Shown here piece after piece: positions 17,110-26,265 of a DNA stretch of 34,573 nt (the first letter of the stretch is position 1; each line of letters begins with the position of its first letter). Made by a program: the position numbers and the translations under genes. Source of the stretch: Minisyncoccia bacterium (GTDB lineage Bacteria; Patescibacteriota; Minisyncoccia; Phycocordibacterales; Phycocordibacteraceae); assembly GCA_038212075.1 (NCBI GenBank), contig JBBQUV010000006.1, positions 1 through 34,573 on the forward strand. The letters run 5' to 3'. The notes beneath the pieces are model-generated. The model saw nothing but the letters and a program-made list of their open reading frames with translations, had not been told where the DNA came from and searched no databases.

Positions 17110-17144
17110 GAACACCGCCGCGCCTTGCGCGGCGGTGTTCGTTT
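17110..17144 (+). terminator. GC-rich hairpin after rpmF
   Basis: Perfect 14-bp stem GAACACCGCCGCGC-CTT-GCGCGGCGGTGTTC, with only a weak T-tract. Confidence 0.65.
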
Positions 17145-17166
17145 GGTACTGTTACGTCAGAGCTTC

Positions 17167-18084
17167 ATGGCAAATCGGCATCTCGCACGTTCGGTTGTAT
17201 TACAAACACTCTTTGAGTGGGATACAACGCATGCGACCACCGAAGGTGCCACCGAAATCCTCGTGCGCAACGTAGAAGAGTTTGGCGGCGACTCCACCGA
17301 CCGACCGTTTATGGAAAATCTCCTCACTGGTGTTCTTGCTAAAAAAGCGGACATCGATTTAATTATAGAAAAAGCCGCACCCGATTGGCCTTTGGATAAA
17401 ATTGCACCCGTTGATCGCAATATTTTGCGTATCGGACTTTTTGAACTTTTGTTTGCCGACCGCGCGCAGGTGCCGGCAAAAGTAGCTATCAACGAAGCCA
17501 TTGAACTGGCAAAAACATTTGGCGGCGAATCATCCGGCCGCTTCATCAACGGTGTGCTTGGTGCCGTGTACAAAGAAATCGGCGAACCCGGCAAAGAAGA
17601 AACGGGAAAGAAAAAAGCGGTGCGTCGCGAAGATTTACCTATTGAACAGCTTGTTGGTGCTGTCGTATATGCCTTTCACGAAGGACAGTACTACCTTGCG
17701 CTTGTGCACGACGTGTTTGGGCACTGGACGCTCTCCAAGGGAGGCATGGATGCCACTGATAACAGTATTCAAGAAGCAACGGTACGTGAAATAAAAGAAG
17801 AAACCGGATTGGATATTGTCGTGCACGAAAAAATCGGCGAGAACGAATATGTGGCGAGCCATCCTGAAAAAGGAAAGTACCGAAAACATGTTACGTACTT
17901 CATTGCAGAATCGCCATACGTGGATATTCACTTGAAACAAACCGGCGGTCTTGATGACGCGCGCTGGTTTAAGCTTCCCGACATTCTTGAACTCAATTTT
18001 TACGACGATATGTTGCCGATTGTCACAGCGGCTGTGCAAACACTTCTTGAACGTGCGCCCGCAAGAACGGGGGGCGCTAGCTAG
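17167..18084 (+). CDS. nusB: NusB antitermination factor fused to a C-terminal NUDIX hydrolase
   Basis: NusB: RHLARSVVLQTLF, VDRNILR, VAINEAIELAKTFG, FINGVLG. NUDIX: HWTLSKG...EATVREIKEETGL. Confidence 0.92.
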   Translation: MANRHLARSVVLQTLFEWDTTHATTEGATEILVRNVEEFGGDSTDRPFMENLLTGVLAKKADIDLIIEKAAPDWPLDKIAPVDRNILRIGLFELLFADRAQVPAKVAINEAIELAKTFGGESSGRFINGVLGAVYKEIGEPGKEETGKKKAVRREDLPIEQLVGAVVYAFHEGQYYLALVHDVFGHWTLSKGGMDATDNSIQEATVREIKEETGLDIVVHEKIGENEYVASHPEKGKYRKHVTYFIAESPYVDIHLKQTGGLDDARWFKLPDILELNFYDDMLPIVTAAVQTLLERAPARTGGAS

Positions 18085-18829: not shown

Positions 18830-21025
18830 ATGTTGAAACGGCTTGAAATCGCCGGGTTTAAATCGTTCGCCAAGAAGACTATCTTGGATTTTTCGAATGC
18901 CACCACGGCAATCGTGGGGCCAAACGGTTCCGGAAAAAGTAACGTTGCTGAAGCGTTCCGTTTTGCGCTTGGTGAACAGTCAATGAAGTCAATGCGCGGC
19001 AAGCGTAGCGAAGACCTTATTTTCTCTGGTTCCCATTCTGCGGGACGCTCCAACCGCGCATCGGTAGCTATTGTGTTTGATAACTCCAAAAAACAATTCA
19101 AGATTGATTTTGAAGAAATAATCATTGAACGCGCCGTGTTTCGCGATGGCTCAAGCGAATATTCCGTAAACGGTTCAAAAGCACGCTTGCGTGATATTCA
19201 AGAAATTTTAGCGAGTGCCAACATTGGAGAAACGGGGCACCATATTATTTCACAAGGCGAAGCCGACCGTATTCTTCTTGCAAATCCGCGTGAACGCCGC
19301 GAGATGCTTGAAAATGCACTTGGACTTTCGGTGTATGAATTTAAGAAAGAAGAAAGCAATCGCAAATTGGAAAAGACCGAAGAGAATATAAAACAAGTGG
19401 AAGCGCTCCGTCGGGAACTTGCGCCCCATCTGCGTTTTTTGGAAAAACAGGTTGAGCGTCTAGAACGTGCCGATGAATTGCGTCGTGAACTTGAAAAAGA
19501 GTGGAGCGTATATGTGGTGAATGAGGGTGCCTATATTGAAAAAGAGAAACAAGCAGTAGCGGTAGCGAAAAAAACCGCAGAAGAACGCCTTGCTCAACTT
19601 GGTGCGGAACTGACCAAACTTGATGAAAACGCTGGCGACCGTGAAGGCTCAAAACGTTCTGAAGCAGTGCGTCAAGCAGAACGCAATCTCGACAGGCTCG
19701 CAAACGAGCGTGCTGTTTTGTCACGTGAAATTGGAAAAATAGAAGGCGCGCTTGAGGCGGCAAAAAACAGAAGTACCGAAGCCGCAAGAGATCCTTATGC
19801 CAAAGTGCCGCGGGCAGATATGACCGCACTGCGTGATGAAATAGAAAAACAAGTAGAAGGTGTGGGTGATACACCCGAAGCGCTACGTGCAGTGCTTTCA
19901 TCGGTGCGTACTGTTATTCGTGCTTTTTTTGAACGCTTCGCACTTCCGACCGATGCCTATTTGCAGGATGAAGAACAAAACGTATTTGCACTCCAGAATG
20001 AACAGAAAAAACTGCTTGAAAAAGATACCAACATTGGCGAATCGCTTGAGGCGTCTCGTAGTGATTTGCAGAGAGCACGCGACGCGGCTCATGCATACGA
20101 AGAAGCAAGCCGTGAAGGTAGGCATCACTTGATTGAACTTGCCGACGAGCGTGCAAAACAAGAAGCAGAAGTTGTGCGCCAACAGGGGAGAATAACGGAA
20201 CTAGGACTTTTGTCTCAAGAGATTGAAACACAGCGCGGAGAAATCGCCGTGCTGATTGGAAGCCGAGCACTCACCGAAGCTGAGCGTGCTGATGAACATG
20301 AAGATCGTAGTGTGCAGGAAGCGCGCAAAAAAGCGATTGAACGCTTGAAGATTCGTCTTGAAGAAGCAGGTGGCACTGGTGAAGATGTGCGTACGGAATT
20401 TAAAGATGCCACACATCGTGAAGCTTTTCTCGGAAAAGAACTTGAAGATCTTGCTGGCTCTGCTGAAGGACTTCGCCAGCTTATTACAGATCTTGATAGT
20501 GAACTTGCGAAAAATTTCTCTGAAGGACTTAAAAAGGTAAATGAGTCATTTACCGAATTCTTTGCCCTTATGTTTGGCGGTGGCGGGGCAAAACTCGTAC
20601 TTGAAGAACCGGAAGAAGTTGATGAAGACGAAGAAGACGCTACGCATGACGTGCATAAAAAAGACGATCGTTCGGGCATTGAAATTTCCGTGAATCTTCC
20701 GAAAAAGCGGGTGCAGTCACTGATGCAACTTTCAGGCGGCGAACGCGCACTTACCTCCATCGCGCTTATTTTTGCGATGAGTCAAGTGAATCCTCCGCCA
20801 TTTTTGATACTGGACGAAACTGATGCGGCGCTCGACGAAGCAAACAGCCGTCGCTATGGTGACATGATTGAATCGCTTGCAAAGAAATCACAGTTAATCG
20901 TGATTACGCACAACCGCGAAACCATGAGTCGTGCAGGCATTTTGTACGGCGTTACGATGGGTGGTGACGGTGTTTCAAAACTTCTTTCCGTGAAATTTGA
21001 CGAAGCGGTTTCGGTGGCGAAATAA
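18830..21025 (+). CDS. smc: Short SMC-family ATPase (731 aa)
   Basis: GFKSF, GPNGSGKSN, ISQG, LSGGE, LDETDAALD, ITH; coiled coils; follows rnc. Confidence 0.88.
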   Translation: MLKRLEIAGFKSFAKKTILDFSNATTAIVGPNGSGKSNVAEAFRFALGEQSMKSMRGKRSEDLIFSGSHSAGRSNRASVAIVFDNSKKQFKIDFEEIIIERAVFRDGSSEYSVNGSKARLRDIQEILASANIGETGHHIISQGEADRILLANPRERREMLENALGLSVYEFKKEESNRKLEKTEENIKQVEALRRELAPHLRFLEKQVERLERADELRRELEKEWSVYVVNEGAYIEKEKQAVAVAKKTAEERLAQLGAELTKLDENAGDREGSKRSEAVRQAERNLDRLANERAVLSREIGKIEGALEAAKNRSTEAARDPYAKVPRADMTALRDEIEKQVEGVGDTPEALRAVLSSVRTVIRAFFERFALPTDAYLQDEEQNVFALQNEQKKLLEKDTNIGESLEASRSDLQRARDAAHAYEEASREGRHHLIELADERAKQEAEVVRQQGRITELGLLSQEIETQRGEIAVLIGSRALTEAERADEHEDRSVQEARKKAIERLKIRLEEAGGTGEDVRTEFKDATHREAFLGKELEDLAGSAEGLRQLITDLDSELAKNFSEGLKKVNESFTEFFALMFGGGGAKLVLEEPEEVDEDEEDATHDVHKKDDRSGIEISVNLPKKRVQSLMQLSGGERALTSIALIFAMSQVNPPPFLILDETDAALDEANSRRYGDMIESLAKKSQLIVITHNRETMSRAGILYGVTMGGDGVSKLLSVKFDEAVSVAK

Positions 21026-21089
21026 CGCACATTGCATCAGGTGAATTTCGGGTGTAGGTTCTGCTAGTGCTAACGCTGGGAGGCTAGCT

Positions 21090-21854
21090 ATGAAAGTGCT
21101 ACTTCATGTGAAGGGCGATGATGGCATCGCTCAGATCCTTCAACAAGCAATTCAAAACGACGATCGCGCGGTTACGGTGTCACCGTATATGAGTATGAGT
21201 TCGGGAAACTTCAGTGCGTTTGCGGATATGGTTTCCAACCACGATGTACTCGTGACGCAGGCGGGACGTGCGGCGGGGCAAACATACGATTCTTTGCGCT
21301 CGAATCTGCGCAAACTCCGCGACGCGGGCGTCACTACTAAAATCGTTGTTTTTACCGACGACGATCCGCTTGAGGAAGCCATGCTTCTTGTGGGTGGCGC
21401 CGACTACTGTGTTGGTGAACCCACCATGCAGGCAGAAGAACGTATCTTCCTTATCCGCGCGGCAGTAGACCGTGTTGTCATGCGTCACGGCACGGCATAC
21501 GAAACAGAGGAAAACGAGATACGGATCGGAGGACTGCATCTCAACACCAACACGTGCCTACTTACTGCTGTTTCTCGTGACGCGTTGGTGCGACTCACGG
21601 TAACTGAGACAAAAATCTTAGAAACACTCATGCGCCGACCGTCTGCCGCGTATAGTCGCGATCAACTTTTGAGTGCGGCGTATCCTGATGATGTGTATGT
21701 TGATGACCGCACCATCGACTCGCACATCAAACGCATTCGTCTGAATAAGTTAAGAAAACTTAACGATGGCGCAGATAAATGCATCATGACACTGTACGGT
21801 GTTGGGTATCGCTTCAGTGAAGATGTGGCACGTAAACTGTTTCCTATCGCGTAA
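21090..21854 (+). CDS. Orphan OmpR-family regulator: degenerate receiver + ChvI/BvrR-like winged helix
   Basis: LTVTE, SRDQLLSAAY, VYVDDRTIDSHIKR, TLYGVGYRF; promoter TTGCAT-17-TAGGTT; SD GGGAGG. Confidence 0.88.
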   Translation: MKVLLHVKGDDGIAQILQQAIQNDDRAVTVSPYMSMSSGNFSAFADMVSNHDVLVTQAGRAAGQTYDSLRSNLRKLRDAGVTTKIVVFTDDDPLEEAMLLVGGADYCVGEPTMQAEERIFLIRAAVDRVVMRHGTAYETEENEIRIGGLHLNTNTCLLTAVSRDALVRLTVTETKILETLMRRPSAAYSRDQLLSAAYPDDVYVDDRTIDSHIKRIRLNKLRKLNDGADKCIMTLYGVGYRFSEDVARKLFPIA

Positions 21855-21862
21855 GGCGGTAC

Positions 21863-21912
21863 ATCCGCCCAAAAGGAATCCGCTCGGCTTTCTTTTTGGG
21901 CGGATTCTTTTT
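21863..21912 (+). terminator. Intrinsic terminator
   Basis: ATCCGCCCAAAAGGAA...TTCTTTTTGGGCGGAT followed by TCTTTTT. Confidence 0.75.
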
Positions 21913-21957
21913 ATATGGGTGTGGATTACTCACTTATTGCCTGTGATACGCTTTAAA

Positions 21958-22247
21958 GGTCGACGGGGAAAGGGCTTCCCGTACGATTTCGGCAGAAGCC
22001 GAATGCATCAGCCCCAATCAGCAGGTGGAGGTTTTCCATGTTGAAAACGATTACGTTTGCGCCATGTCTCGCTCGTGAAGGGCCAGCGCGTCGCAATGCG
22101 ACTCCCATGTTTCAACCTCTCTGTCTGAAAGGACGGTGATCATCATCTGGCGTGATAAGCGGATTACAAATCCGATTTCCTAACAGGTAAGCGCCGGCCA
22201 GGTTTGGCCTAACTTCGGGGGTGCCGCTTTGCGGGCCCCCTCTTTTT
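21958..22247 (+). ncRNA. Putative ~290-nt structured RNA (may contain a 33-codon sORF at 22038-22139)
   Basis: Extended -10 TGaTACGCT (21944-21952), at least seven short hairpins, terminal GGGGG..CCCCC hairpin + TCTTTTT. Confidence 0.55.
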
Positions 22248-22319
22248 ATCCACACGGCGCGGGCGTATCCTTTTAAAGACTTCACGCGTAGTATTCTTTA
22301 CACCCTAACCACCCCGTAT

Positions 22320-23546
22320 ATGGCCGCATTTGAATACTTCAAACAAAATGTAGACAAAGCAGTAACATTGCTCGGACTTTCGGAATCTGAGCGGCAGGCG
22401 CTTGAACGGCCGGATAGAATTCTGCGAGCAGAATTAACCATTCCTCTTTCCGCAGGAGGTACGGCAACCTTTCCCGCATATCGTGTGCAATTTAATAACG
22501 CGCGTGGACCATACAAGGGCGGTATTCGTTTTCACCCAAACGCGGATGAGGATGAAGTTTCTGCACTTGCCGCAATGATGGCGATAAAATGCGCGGTGGT
22601 GGGCATTCCTATGGGTGGGGGAAAGGGCGGCGTGGCAGTGGATCCTAAAAAACTTTCAAAAGATGATTTGCATGCTTTGAGTCGCGAATACGTAAAAGCA
22701 TTTGCAGAACATTTGGGGCCAGACAAAGACGTGCCGGCGCCGGATGTGTACACCAACCCAGAGATTATGGGTGTCATGCTCGATGAATACGAAAAAATAA
22801 CAGGACACGCGGCGCCGGCAATGATAACAGGAAAAGCAATTGAGAAAGGTGGCATTCTTGGGCGCGATACGGCGACCGCCGACGGTGCGATTATTGTGCT
22901 TGAAGCACTGCTTGCCGACCAGCATCGCGATGTTTCAAAACTGCGCGCCGCAGTTCAGGGCGCCGGCAACGCCGGCGCCCGAGCGGCAGAATTATTAAGC
23001 ACCAAGGGTGCAAAAGTTGTAGCACTCGCTGATTCAAGTGGCACACTTACCAATCCGAGCGGTATTGATATAAAACGAGTGCTTGAAATAAAAGCAGAAA
23101 AAGGGGAACTAAAAGACGCGGGCGAAGTAACGGCTTCGGACGCAGTGATTACCACCGATGCAGATATTTTGCTTCCTGCGGCTCTTGAAGAACAGGTGCG
23201 AAAAGACAATGCCGGAGCAGTACGGGCAGACGTCATTGTAGAAATCGCTAATGGTCCCGTTACGCCGGAGGCTGACGCCATCCTTGCCCAAATGCGCGTT
23301 GCGGTTGTTCCAGACGTGCTCGCAAATGCTGGCGGTGTTACTGTCTCCTATTTTGAATGGCTTCAAAATCGTTCAACTGAAATCTGGACGCACCAGCGCG
23401 TAGAAGAACGACTTACGGAAACAATGCAGGATGCCTATCGCGATGTTGCGGATTTTGCTATCACTCGCAGTGTCACCCTTCGCGAAGCCGCGTACGCTCT
23501 CGCGCTCTCGCGCATTATTGATGCGATGAAGAATCGCGATTCTTAA
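22320..23546 (+). CDS. gdhA: Glu/Leu/Phe/Val dehydrogenase (glutamate dehydrogenase)
   Basis: RGPYKGGIRFHP, GGGKGG, DVPAPDV, ITGK, QGAGNAG, EIANGP, PDVLANAGGVTVSYFEW. Confidence 0.93.
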   Translation: MAAFEYFKQNVDKAVTLLGLSESERQALERPDRILRAELTIPLSAGGTATFPAYRVQFNNARGPYKGGIRFHPNADEDEVSALAAMMAIKCAVVGIPMGGGKGGVAVDPKKLSKDDLHALSREYVKAFAEHLGPDKDVPAPDVYTNPEIMGVMLDEYEKITGHAAPAMITGKAIEKGGILGRDTATADGAIIVLEALLADQHRDVSKLRAAVQGAGNAGARAAELLSTKGAKVVALADSSGTLTNPSGIDIKRVLEIKAEKGELKDAGEVTASDAVITTDADILLPAALEEQVRKDNAGAVRADVIVEIANGPVTPEADAILAQMRVAVVPDVLANAGGVTVSYFEWLQNRSTEIWTHQRVEERLTETMQDAYRDVADFAITRSVTLREAAYALALSRIIDAMKNRDS

Positions 23547-23766
23547 ATTTTTGAATGGCGAGCACGAGCCATTGCATCCCAACAATGCTTTGGGTAATGG
23601 CGGTAAGCCATAAGTGAAGGGTGAACAACATCGATGCGGAAACAAGAAGTAGAATGCCTGTGGGAATGCTTGAAGAAAGTGGTGGTTTTTCTTTCGCACG
23701 AAGCATGGGGATGAGCGTGAGACAGAAGACGATCTGTCCAAACGTGAGTACGTAGTCCTGCCACAT
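23515..23766 (-). CDS. Small three-TM membrane protein (SemiSWEET/PQ-loop-like)
   Basis: 83 aa with three hydrophobic helices and LIPML after TM1; starts 1 nt after the rnr stop; 3' end overlaps gdhA by 32 bp. Confidence 0.6.
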   Translation of the reverse strand: MWQDYVLTFGQIVFCLTLIPMLRAKEKPPLSSSIPTGILLLVSASMLFTLHLWLTAITQSIVGMQWLVLAIQKFKNRDSSSHQ

Positions 23767-23767
23767 G

Positions 23768-25741
23768 CTACTTCGTTTCTACAAGTCCGAAATCAAGTTC
23801 TTTTTCAAATGTTCGGGCGGCCATAAGTTTGACACGAATGGGGTCGCCAAGGGCGTATTCTTTTTTTGTACGTTCACCCACAATGCGGTAGCGTTTTTCG
23901 TCGTGAACAAAATAGTCGTCACCAAGGTCGCGGATACGAATCATCCCTTCAGCATGGGTTTCTTTCAGCTCTACATAAATCCCACGGTCGGATACGCCGG
24001 AAATGACCGCATCGTATTCGCTTCCAATTTTGTCCGCCATAAATTCTACAATCTTTAGCTTCACCGAGTCGCGTTCGGCTTCTGTTGCCGCTACTTCGCG
24101 CTCGCTTGAATGAAGGGCGAGGGATTCAAGTTCTTCCAATTCTTTCTTTGGAACGGTTTGCTGGTGCTCCCAATGCTTCACCATGCGGTGTACGAGCAAG
24201 TCAGGATAACGGCGGATAGGAGAGGTAAAGTGTGTGTAGTACTCAAATGCCAAGCCAAAGTGACCGACGTTTTTGGTGGAATACACCGCCTTTGCCATAG
24301 AACGGAGTGTTGCTGTTTTAATCAAATATTCTTCGGGCGTTCCTTTTGTTTGTTCAAGTAGTTTGTTCAAGTCGGTACCTTTTACTTTTCCGCCGCTCGT
24401 TTTAAGGTCGTAGCCCATGACGCGCAAAAACTGCGAAAGGTTTTCAATACGTTCTGCATCAGGCACGTCGTGCACGCGATAGATAGCGCCGTAGGTAAAT
24501 TTGTGGGCTTTGGCGAGTTTGGAAAGGTGTTCTGCCACTGCTTCGTTTGCGAGCAACATAAAGTCTTCAATCAGAAGGTTGGTTTCTTTGCGTTCTTTCA
24601 GATGTATCGCGACCGGTTTACCGGTCGCGTCAATTTCCACCTTCACTTCCGGTGTATCAAATTCAATAGCACCCTTGGCAACGCGTCGCGCACGGATTTT
24701 CTTTGCAAGCGTGGCGATGGTGGAAAGCTCGTCGAACAATATGCCGCTTTTATTGTCGAGCACACCCTGTGCTTCTTCATACGTAAATCGTTTTGCAGAG
24801 TGAATGACTGTTTCGCCAAACCACTTCTCTTGCACGTTTGCGTCCGCGTCAAGCACGAATACCGCCGACACCGACAAGCGATCAACGTCTTGATTCAGCG
24901 AACACAAGTCGTTGGAAAGCACGTGCGGAAGCATGGGAATCGTTCGATCAACAAGATACACCGATGTGGCGCGGTTTCTGCCTTCCGTATCAATAGCTGA
25001 ACCGGTTTTTACAAAGTACGAAACGTCGGCAATGTGCACGCCCACTTCAATGTTTCCATCCGGAAGTTTCCGCACCGAAAGTGCATCGTCGAAGTCTTTT
25101 GCGTCTGCTGGGTCTATGGTGAATGTGGGAGTGGTTCGAAAGTCACGGCGGCCGGCGGTACCGGCTTCAATAAGTCCCTTTCCGGTTTCTTCAAGCTTCT
25201 TTGCTTCGGCTACTACGCCGGGAGGGAAGTCGGGGTGAAAACCCTGCGCAAGTACCAAAGCGCGCATTTCAACGTCGTGTACACCTGCTTCACCGATGTC
25301 TTCGGTTACTGTGGCGCGCGGAATTTCTTCGCCTTCTTTCCATCCCGTAAATTTCACCACCACTTTGTGACCCATCGGAAATTCAAAATCGTCGGCGCTG
25401 TCTTTCTCACAAATCATAAACGGCACATACATACGTTTGCTGTCCGGAAGAAGAATGATGTTACCTCGCTCGGTCTTACTGAGGGTGCCCACGAATGTTT
25501 CGGTGGCACGCGAGATTATTTCCACTACCTTGCCTGCCTTGCGACGGTCTACCATTCCAGCGGGCTGTACTTTTACGACATCGCGCGGAAGGGCAGTGCC
25601 AAGCCATTCGCGAGGAATCAAAAGGTCGTTTTCTTTATCAGGGCGTGCTTTAGGGTTGTTCTTTGGGTCAGGGATAGAGAAAAACCCCTTACCGGTGCGG
25701 GTTATGGTTATTGGTCCTTCGTACACTTGGGGGTTAGACAC
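23768..25741 (-). CDS. rnr: Ribonuclease R / RNB-family exoribonuclease
   Basis: TIDPADAKDFDDALS, VHIADVS, TSVYLVDR, HFGLA..YTHFTSPIRRYPDL, C-terminal S1 domain; GTG start. Confidence 0.95.
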   Translation of the reverse strand: MSNPQVYEGPITITRTGKGFFSIPDPKNNPKARPDKENDLLIPREWLGTALPRDVVKVQPAGMVDRRKAGKVVEIISRATETFVGTLSKTERGNIILLPDSKRMYVPFMICEKDSADDFEFPMGHKVVVKFTGWKEGEEIPRATVTEDIGEAGVHDVEMRALVLAQGFHPDFPPGVVAEAKKLEETGKGLIEAGTAGRRDFRTTPTFTIDPADAKDFDDALSVRKLPDGNIEVGVHIADVSYFVKTGSAIDTEGRNRATSVYLVDRTIPMLPHVLSNDLCSLNQDVDRLSVSAVFVLDADANVQEKWFGETVIHSAKRFTYEEAQGVLDNKSGILFDELSTIATLAKKIRARRVAKGAIEFDTPEVKVEIDATGKPVAIHLKERKETNLLIEDFMLLANEAVAEHLSKLAKAHKFTYGAIYRVHDVPDAERIENLSQFLRVMGYDLKTSGGKVKGTDLNKLLEQTKGTPEEYLIKTATLRSMAKAVYSTKNVGHFGLAFEYYTHFTSPIRRYPDLLVHRMVKHWEHQQTVPKKELEELESLALHSSEREVAATEAERDSVKLKIVEFMADKIGSEYDAVISGVSDRGIYVELKETHAEGMIRIRDLGDDYFVHDEKRYRIVGERTKKEYALGDPIRVKLMAARTFEKELDFGLVETK

Positions 25742-25806: not shown

Positions 25807-26265
25807 ATGTTGATGATCCGATTCCAGCGCATTGGCCGTAAAAACGACCCGGCGTTTCGTATTCTTGTGCTTGAAAAGACCGCCAGCCCAAAGGCGGGAA
25901 CCTATACCGACCTCCTTGGTACGTACAACCCAAAGACCAAGGCGCTCACTGTCGCCGCCGACCGTCTTAAAGTGTGGATGGAAAAGGGTGCACAGCTTTC
26001 TCCATCTCTTATGAACCTTCTTATCGCGAAGAAGATTATTGAAGGAACAAAGACACAGGTTATTTCAACGAAGAATCTCGAAAAGAATAAGGCAAAGAAA
26101 GAAGAAGAGGCAGCCGCCGCCGCAGTGGCCGCCGCTGAACCAGCACCCGTTGTTGAAGCAGAAGCTCCGGCTGAAGAGGTTGTTCCTGCAGAAGCAGAAG
26201 TTCCCGCACCACCAGCTGAAGAAACGCCTGTTGTTGAGGAAGCTCCGGCTGAAGTCGTGGCGTAA
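25807..26265 (+). CDS. rpsP: 30S ribosomal protein S16 with acidic Ala/Glu/Pro tail
   Basis: MIRFQRIGRKNDPAFRI, LGTYNP, WMEKGAQLS. Confidence 0.95.
   Translation: MLMIRFQRIGRKNDPAFRILVLEKTASPKAGTYTDLLGTYNPKTKALTVAADRLKVWMEKGAQLSPSLMNLLIAKKIIEGTKTQVISTKNLEKNKAKKEEEAAAAAVAAAEPAPVVEAEAPAEEVVPAEAEVPAPPAEETPVVEEAPAEVVA

Follow-up and report, generated by a model that had tools for sequence, protein, structure and literature searches.

How does a genome of the Candidate Phyla Radiation (CPR) come to hold a regulator that resembles the alphaproteobacterial ChvI/BvrR in its DNA-binding half and lacks the phospho-accepting aspartate in the other? The question is raised by a gene at positions 21090 to 21854 of the 34,573-nucleotide stretch analysed here (contig JBBQUV010000006.1 of the Minisyncoccia bacterium assembly GCA_038212075.1), which we call the window. 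A preliminary description had taken the product for a ChvI look-alike with a decayed receiver, kept by selection for its ChvI DNA specificity and possibly acting on the ChvI boxes of an alphaproteobacterial host. We consider it fairly probable that the gene encodes instead an orphan, phosphorylation-independent OmpR/PhoB regulator whose ChvI-type DNA-binding domain was anciently acquired and which likely acts on the bacterium's own genes. The parts of the gene to which the analysis refers are the following.

21090..21854, plus strand: coding sequence of the pseudo-receiver/winged-helix regulator, 254 amino acids (aa), ATG start, stop codon included
21090..21491, plus strand: pseudo-receiver domain, residues 1-134, predicted (beta-alpha)5 fold without a PF00072 match
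21258-21260, plus strand: codon of Gln57 at the phospho-Asp site, from the AlphaFold2 (AF2) model and alignment
21417-21419, plus strand: codon of Glu110, in place of Lys, from the AF2 model and alignment
21492..21515, plus strand: flexible part of the linker, residues 135-142, with a predicted local distance difference test score (pLDDT) below 50 at 134-139
21516..21818, plus strand: ChvI-like OmpR/PhoB-type winged helix-turn-helix, residues 143-243, from PF00486, identities, tree and structure matches
21708..21761, plus strand: recognition helix alpha3, residues 207-224, RTIDSHIKRIRLNKLRKL, from the AF2 model and comparison of the aligned rows
21819..21851, plus strand: family-specific C-terminal tail, residues 244-254, predicted helix at 244-250, without a ChvI counterpart

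Pfam searches of the 254-aa protein returned no match to the receiver family Response_reg (PF00072), even at E ≤ 1. At the former active site, the acidic pair is replaced by Lys8/Gly9 (placed at the Asp-Asp positions by alignment), the phospho-accepting Asp by Gln57 and the Lys-Pro after strand beta5 by Glu110-Pro111, and the sole canonical residue retained is Thr89, the last of beta4. Gln57 was assigned to the phospho-Asp position because residues 53-57 form strand beta3 in the AF2 model, from which the places of Glu110-Pro111 and Thr89 were also read. This confirms the degenerate receiver of the preliminary description, whose quoted motifs (LTVTETKILETL, SRDQLLSAAYPDDVYVDDRTIDSHIKRIR, TLYGVGYRF, DVLVTQ and CVGEP) are all present. 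Judged by these residues, the receiver is predicted to be non-phosphorylatable. It also differs from the receivers of ChvI/BvrR, which it matches with only 17-26% identity, not above its identity to other paralogues; by this measure the receiver half is without a ChvI signal.

The AF2 model, built on a 39-sequence alignment (pLDDT 91.4, predicted template modelling score 0.54), shows the full two-domain OmpR/PhoB fold, with a (beta-alpha)5 receiver at residues 2-134, a disordered segment at 134-139 and a winged helix. The predicted order of strands (E) and helices (H) in the receiver is E2-6, H11-21, E26-30, H41-49, E53-57, H66-78, E84-89, H93-102, E106-109 and H115-134. Foldseek aligned the model over 243-248 columns to the full-length regulators KdpE, PmrA, PrrA and MtrA and also matched the atypical regulators HP1043 (2hqr), RitR (5u8m), GlnR (8hih) and CosR (8uvx). 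Homology of the N-terminal half to receivers was not taken from the model alone, since a profile of the first 130 residues of the protein's family (see below) matched the receivers of CPR regulators in our own panel at an E value of 2.6e-8.

By its predicted fold and its lost residues the protein fits the definition of a pseudo-receiver or atypical response regulator in the relevant sections of PMC12632262, in which Asp-less OmpR-type regulators are already a known class. Pseudo-receivers are described there as common, the Asp being absent from 2.0% of PF00072 domains, and dimerisation and DNA binding without phosphorylation are described for many atypical OmpR/PhoB regulators (ChxR, HP1043, GlnR). 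The protein shares with HP1043/HsrA, ChxR, GlnR, CosR and RitR the two domains, the orphan gene and the non-phosphorylatable receiver fold, which here is predicted. It has no specific sequence kinship with any of these, and its Gln, Glu and Lys/Gly replacements as well as its insertions are specific to its own family.

The DNA-binding half is clearly ChvI-like by similarity, as the preliminary description had proposed. Trans_reg_C (PF00486) was the sole Pfam domain (residues 167-242, 68.7 bits versus a cut-off of 26.2), and the PhoB and BaeR effector-domain structures were matched by the winged helix. NCBIfam gave only sub-threshold matches (PhoB, sortase-system regulator, BaeR, CreB). This database appears to hold no ChvI model, and the best scores of four bona fide ChvI proteins, likewise sub-threshold, were with the models for the sortase-system regulator, CreB and BaeR. 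For closer comparison a panel of 74 proteins was used, comprising 5 family members, 24 ChvI, 5 unnamed representatives, 25 other paralogues, 12 CPR regulators and, from Escherichia coli, BaeR, CreB and PhoB. Twenty of the ChvI rows were chosen for taxonomic spread from 80 loci, and four came from a survey of paralogues in four alphaproteobacterial genomes (43 PF00486 matches, reduced to 30 loci and 29 open reading frames (ORFs), 4 of which were ChvI). The winged helix was 46-56% identical to the 24 alphaproteobacterial ChvI/BvrR rows, versus 37% for BaeR, 36% for CreB, 38% for PhoB, at most 34% for other paralogues and 26-34% for CPR regulators.

The likeness extends to the recognition helix alpha3, which reads DDRTIDSHIKRIR in the protein and DDRTIDSHIKRLR in ChvI. 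Extended by the preceding loop, the segments are AAYPDDVYVDDRTIDSHIKRIR and AAYQDDVYVDDRTIDSHIKRLR and differ in one Ile/Leu, and the same holds for RTIDSHIKRIRLNKLRKL taken together with the preceding DD. In common with ChvI/BvrR are the helix DDRTIDSHIKR(I/L)R, the loop AAY.DDVYV, the wing TLYGVGYRF and a long acidic linker. This linker spans 19 residues here, 16-19 in the family and 18-32 in ChvI, compared with 14 in BaeR and CreB, 13 in PhoB and 12 in CPR regulators. BaeR also has DRTIDSHIK, but carries Asn where the protein and ChvI have Arg215, and both BaeR and CreB are canonical, kinase-paired regulators. The extra C-terminal tail, in which Phe251 and Pro252 are invariant in the five-member alignment, so that the tail ends Phe-Pro in the family, is absent from ChvI.

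After its own family, the best winged-helix matches in every collection searched were alphaproteobacterial ChvI. The GTDB species genomes yielded at least 600 pattern matches (599 of 600 confirmed); the best 80 loci comprised 76 from named alphaproteobacteria, 4 assigned only to Pseudomonadota/Proteobacteria and none from CPR. None of the best 80 of 595 metagenome contigs added a family member, the regulators they encode being all of ChvI type. Word-indexed searches gave the same picture: the matches listed beyond the family were all full-length regulators with both domains, every named source was a ChvI or response regulator of Sphingomonadales or other alphaproteobacteria, and in the 90%-cluster collection all 118 matches listed after the query and its relative P0002 carried both PF00486 and PF00072. 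Among phages and plasmids the matches were only generic regulators or, on secondary replicons of alphaproteobacteria, ChvI; the protein atlas gave only generic Trans_reg_C clusters, without usable taxonomy. No paper linking Patescibacteria response regulators with ChvI was found in the literature. The genome itself is rightly labelled CPR-like, because the RNase R encoded nearby has its closest named homologues in Minisyncoccia, Patescibacteria, Paceibacterota, Kaiserbacteria and Parcubacteria. That a CPR genome encodes a DNA-binding domain of ChvI type likely reflects acquisition from another phylum.

Maximum-likelihood analysis of 102 winged-helix columns recovered the family as a clade with support of 98/84. 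It falls within a clade of 37 rows (98/91) made up of ChvI, the five unnamed representatives, the family, BaeR, CreB and one CreB-like paralogue. As far as this tree can tell, the protein is a member of the ChvI/BaeR/CreB group, with ChvI the nearest member by distance. In approximately unbiased (AU) tests, neither a clade of the family with ChvI (p 0.31) nor one with the ChvI of Sphingomonadales (p 0.35) was rejected. Of the grouping with ChvI proposed earlier, the winged-helix phylogeny thus supports only membership of the wider group, and does not place the winged helix inside ChvI; the family was nested in no alphaproteobacterial order. Two metagenome representatives, P0137 and P0143, resemble the family in having a ChvI-type winged helix, on a branch beside ChvI, and in having lost the phospho-Asp (Gly and Ala, respectively), but their receivers still match PF00072 (30.7 and 69.5 bits). 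Since both lie in the ChvI clade and outside the family, Asp-less ChvI derivatives arose more than once.

Several results weigh against the reading that we favour. In the winged-helix tree the family stands beside BaeR plus ChvI with weak support (83/61), so that neither a sister position to ChvI nor one nested within it is supported. The family receiver profile scored best on CPR receivers (26 bits versus at most 16.6 for ChvI), and in a quick tree the receiver stood beside one CPR regulator with support of 77, at the end of a stem of 3.3 substitutions per site; in the AU test a ChvI/CreB-type origin of the receiver was not rejected (p 0.27), nor was the alternative. The receiver may therefore be, to judge from its sequence, of mosaic or other-donor origin, which is possible because long-branch effects are likely in the receiver tree. 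The alignment used for the AF2 model held canonical regulators, biasing it towards the receiver fold. Finally, only one of the four other family clusters is taxonomically named (Minisyncoccia).

The family is very rare. An exhaustive search of 1.84 billion representatives at E ≤ 1e-30 returned only three further proteins (P0121, P0122 and P0123), and a fifth member, P0002 (51% identity, named 'Minisyncoccia bacterium'), came from the 90%-cluster collection, for a total of six sequences in five clusters across the protein collections. In 36 genomes of the same genus and 24 of the same order no match exceeded 45 bits, and in 400 sampled genomes of the same class none exceeded 83 bits, versus 409 bits for the gene itself; the best matches in these 400 genomes were ordinary CPR regulators with a winged helix 25-34% identical. 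The five members diverge to 35-51% identity and yet are of one length class and one layout, with PF00486 only and PF00072 unmatched at E ≤ 0.01. Of the 42 positions that never vary among them, 18 fall in the receiver half; averaged over the 10 pairs, pairwise identity amounts to 35% for the receiver and to 45% for the winged helix. The phospho-Asp position itself varies over the family (Q/C/T/D/A).

Two claims of the preliminary description have to be revised in the light of these data. The receiver was rebuilt and then conserved and is not simply decaying, because the five clusters share their layout and invariant receiver positions. Selection to keep ChvI DNA specificity, on the other hand, would not have acted throughout the family, since the recognition helix carries changed residues in two of the four other members, P0121 (DQRRVDSQIKRIR) and P0122 (DDRNVDSNIKRLR).

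The position and composition of the gene bear on its age. It lies between smc and gdh in a genome of 691 kb (10 contigs, rated 100% complete), and the flanks from smc to RNase R and S16 are syntenic within the genus. The slot between smc and gdh (window 21026-22320) is hypervariable: in several congeners smc is directly followed by gdh, and elsewhere the slot holds a 124-aa hypothetical gene (G026), a gene for a 231-aa membrane-like protein (G012), a 240-aa hypothetical gene (G017) or, in G020, a gene for a protein with two Bac_DnaA_C helix-turn-helix domains (PF08299, 114.6 bits). Thus, two occupants of the slot are DNA-binding proteins encoded directly upstream of gdh. Because the slot is variable and the gene is absent from the relatives sampled, we regard it as a lineage-specific insertion. 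Its GC content of 0.50-0.52 equals that of its neighbours, so the insertion is not recent, and any transfer must be old, given the native composition of the gene and the divergence reached within its family.

We propose that a Parcubacteria-type lineage long ago acquired, by horizontal transfer from a non-CPR bacterium with its own ChvI-like regulator, either a whole ChvI-type regulator or no less than the linker and DNA-binding domain of one. At that point or afterwards the receiver lost its phospho-acceptor chemistry, the residues for which are gone from the present protein, and became a conserved pseudo-receiver; its sequence would have changed rapidly at first, the whole protein then coming under purifying selection. 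The protein would bind repeat sites in the bacterium's own promoters as a dimer and without a kinase, its activity being set either by its own level or by something sensed in the remodelled pocket. The neighbouring gdh may be among the controlled genes, a guess from position only. On this reading the family is a previously unnamed, small addition to the known phosphorylation-independent OmpR/PhoB class and clearly exemplifies a CPR genome in which a regulator has its nearest intact relatives in another phylum. Two questions could be addressed compactly with it: how receivers are remodelled after the loss of phosphorylation, and whether ChvI-type DNA specificity persists beyond alphaproteobacteria.

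The alternative that survives best, though we hold it to be doubtful, is that the pseudo-receiver is a sensor, in which the remodelled pocket or Cys107 would respond to a small molecule or to redox state and gate dimerisation or DNA binding. Regulators of the RitR, HP1021 and JadR1 type are gated by such sensing. In the protein and its family, Thr56, Tyr66, Thr89, Tyr106, Cys107 and Gly109 are invariant and, by topology, surround the former active site; Cys107 takes the position of the aromatic switch residue, and a second cysteine, Cys231, is found in four of the five members. The family also has specific insertions in the beta2-alpha2 and beta3-alpha3 regions, which are the regions where, according to the account of pseudo-receivers in PMC12632262, these domains differ and often bind ligands; Cys-based redox control is described in the same source for RitR and HP1021. 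All this is argued from conservation, however, and Cys107 lies within the modelled strand beta5, where it may be merely structural.

That a kinase still controls the protein seems unlikely. No histidine kinase is encoded near the gene within the window, in agreement with the preliminary description, and the three in the genome are all on contigs other than that of the regulator. One, at the start of contig C4, appears to be paired across a contig break, since C4 seems to abut the start of C10 with its canonical OmpR-type regulator (the two ends share TAACAGT); the second adjoins a single-domain receiver, and the regulators beside these two kinases are canonical. The third (contig C1, 10719-11720, 333 aa) is an orphan that has no adjacent regulator and, like the regulator studied here, no clear orthologue in 40 congeners (best match 36% identity, 169 bits), and it could phosphorylate another residue of the protein or simply bind it. 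Allosteric activation by a kinase without phosphotransfer is known (PMC4251995). Against such control speak the loss of the acceptor Asp, the acidic pair and the catalytic Lys, the location of the two genes on different contigs, and the replacement of Asp52, the only other conserved Asp, by Gln in P0123. Nor is the C1 kinase ChvG-like: searched against four alphaproteobacterial genomes it reached no more than 86 bits, and its score with the ChvG locus of Sphingomonas was 67 bits. As a side observation, the C1 kinase, like the pseudo-receiver regulator, is a species-specific accessory signalling gene.

The ChvG/ExoS/BvrS kinase is normally encoded beside chvI. The genome differs in this respect from those with ChvI/BvrR and ExoS, ChvG or BvrS: the ChvG search suggested in the preliminary description, a tblastn with four ChvG/BvrS proteins, found no ChvG in the genome, the matches being confined to the kinase core (56-90 bits, compared with 217-326 bits for ChvG/BvrS proteins among themselves). 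The scan of the genome for ChvI sites, likewise suggested there, gave no enrichment. The putative Caulobacter-type motif TTGC-N3-GCAA occurred at 24 sites versus 26 ± 4 in 20 first-order Markov simulations, with 0 sites on the contig of the regulator, a result that is uninformative. The published ChvI motifs are weak and differ by species, as the passages concerned in PMC9731502 (TTGC-N3-GCAA versus GCC-N8-GCC) and PMC10538546 indicate; the GCC-N8-GCC motif of S. meliloti is too degenerate for a scan.

Still less probable is that the gene is a functionless remnant of a transferred ChvI gene in the course of decay, as its very sparse distribution and the very long stem of its receiver could suggest. 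The reading frame is intact, with a ribosome-binding site and a terminator of its own, the AF2 model is confident, and the five diverged clusters keep their length, domain layout and invariant positions. The flanking signals are the following.

21078..21083, plus strand: Shine-Dalgarno-like GGGAGG, 6 nucleotides 5′ of the ATG, read from the sequence
21871..21912, plus strand: terminator-like hairpin with a 17-bp stem, from inverted repeats, bordered by an A-run and, at the other end, a T-run

The hairpin stands between the regulator gene and gdh. Its RNA fold has an energy of -30.9 kcal/mol (z -4.75), and 0 of 200 shuffled sequences were equally stable. A scan for consensus promoters and terminators gave no match, its loop limit leaving out this hairpin, and Rfam and tRNA scans of 20900-22450 and 20000-24000 gave none. 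A repeat search of the gene surroundings and the region upstream of gdh found hairpins only and no OmpR-style direct repeats; recurrence of GCGGATT is genome-wide background (110 sites versus 84 expected).

Hardly credible, finally, is the host-directed mimic of the preliminary description, in which kept ChvI DNA specificity would serve to bind the ChvI boxes of an alphaproteobacterial host and so point to that host: the near-identical recognition helix and loop, the alphaproteobacterial nearest intact relatives, the accessory, lineage-specific gene and the small genome fit it, and CPR bacteria are often epibionts, but the protein has no signal peptide or export feature (residues 2-6 form the first receiver strand in the AF2 model), we are aware of no pathway for the delivery of a transcription factor from a CPR cell to its host (no search aimed at one was made), the family has a long history and a native composition, the recognition helix is changed in P0121 and P0122, the tree does not place the family inside ChvI or any alphaproteobacterial order, and the published motifs disagree between species in what PMC9731502 says of them. 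A related reading, in which a captured ChvI DNA-reading module freed from its kinase could recognise host ChvI boxes if the hosts are alphaproteobacteria, has an equally slim chance; such boxes might be met on DNA taken up by the epibiont, or after transfer into the host. Were it true, the captured module would record a past or present alphaproteobacterial association. Nothing was found in support of a clue to host identity, and the gene as it stands says nothing on host identity or host manipulation.

Some further observations concern the neighbourhood of the orphan regulator. The noncoding stretch upstream of gdh (21915-22320, about 400 nucleotides) is unusually long for a 691-kb genome, and the corresponding stretches of the congeners G026, G025 and G028 are similar in length. 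An alignment of the gdh upstream regions of five congeners showed only a short conserved block near gdh, TTATCC(C)CAC ... GGCGTATC, without an Rfam match. The SMC-like protein encoded at 18830-21025 of the window has only 731 aa, with SMC_N over residues 1-716, typical bacterial SMC being far longer; its last 307 residues are 65-78% identical across the genus. At 17125-18084 a 319-aa ORF fuses NusB to a NUDIX hydrolase (PF01029, 119.8 bits; PF00293, 52.5 bits), and the ribosomal protein S16 encoded at 25807-26265 is extended at its C-terminus by about 60 residues rich in Ala, Pro, Glu and Val.

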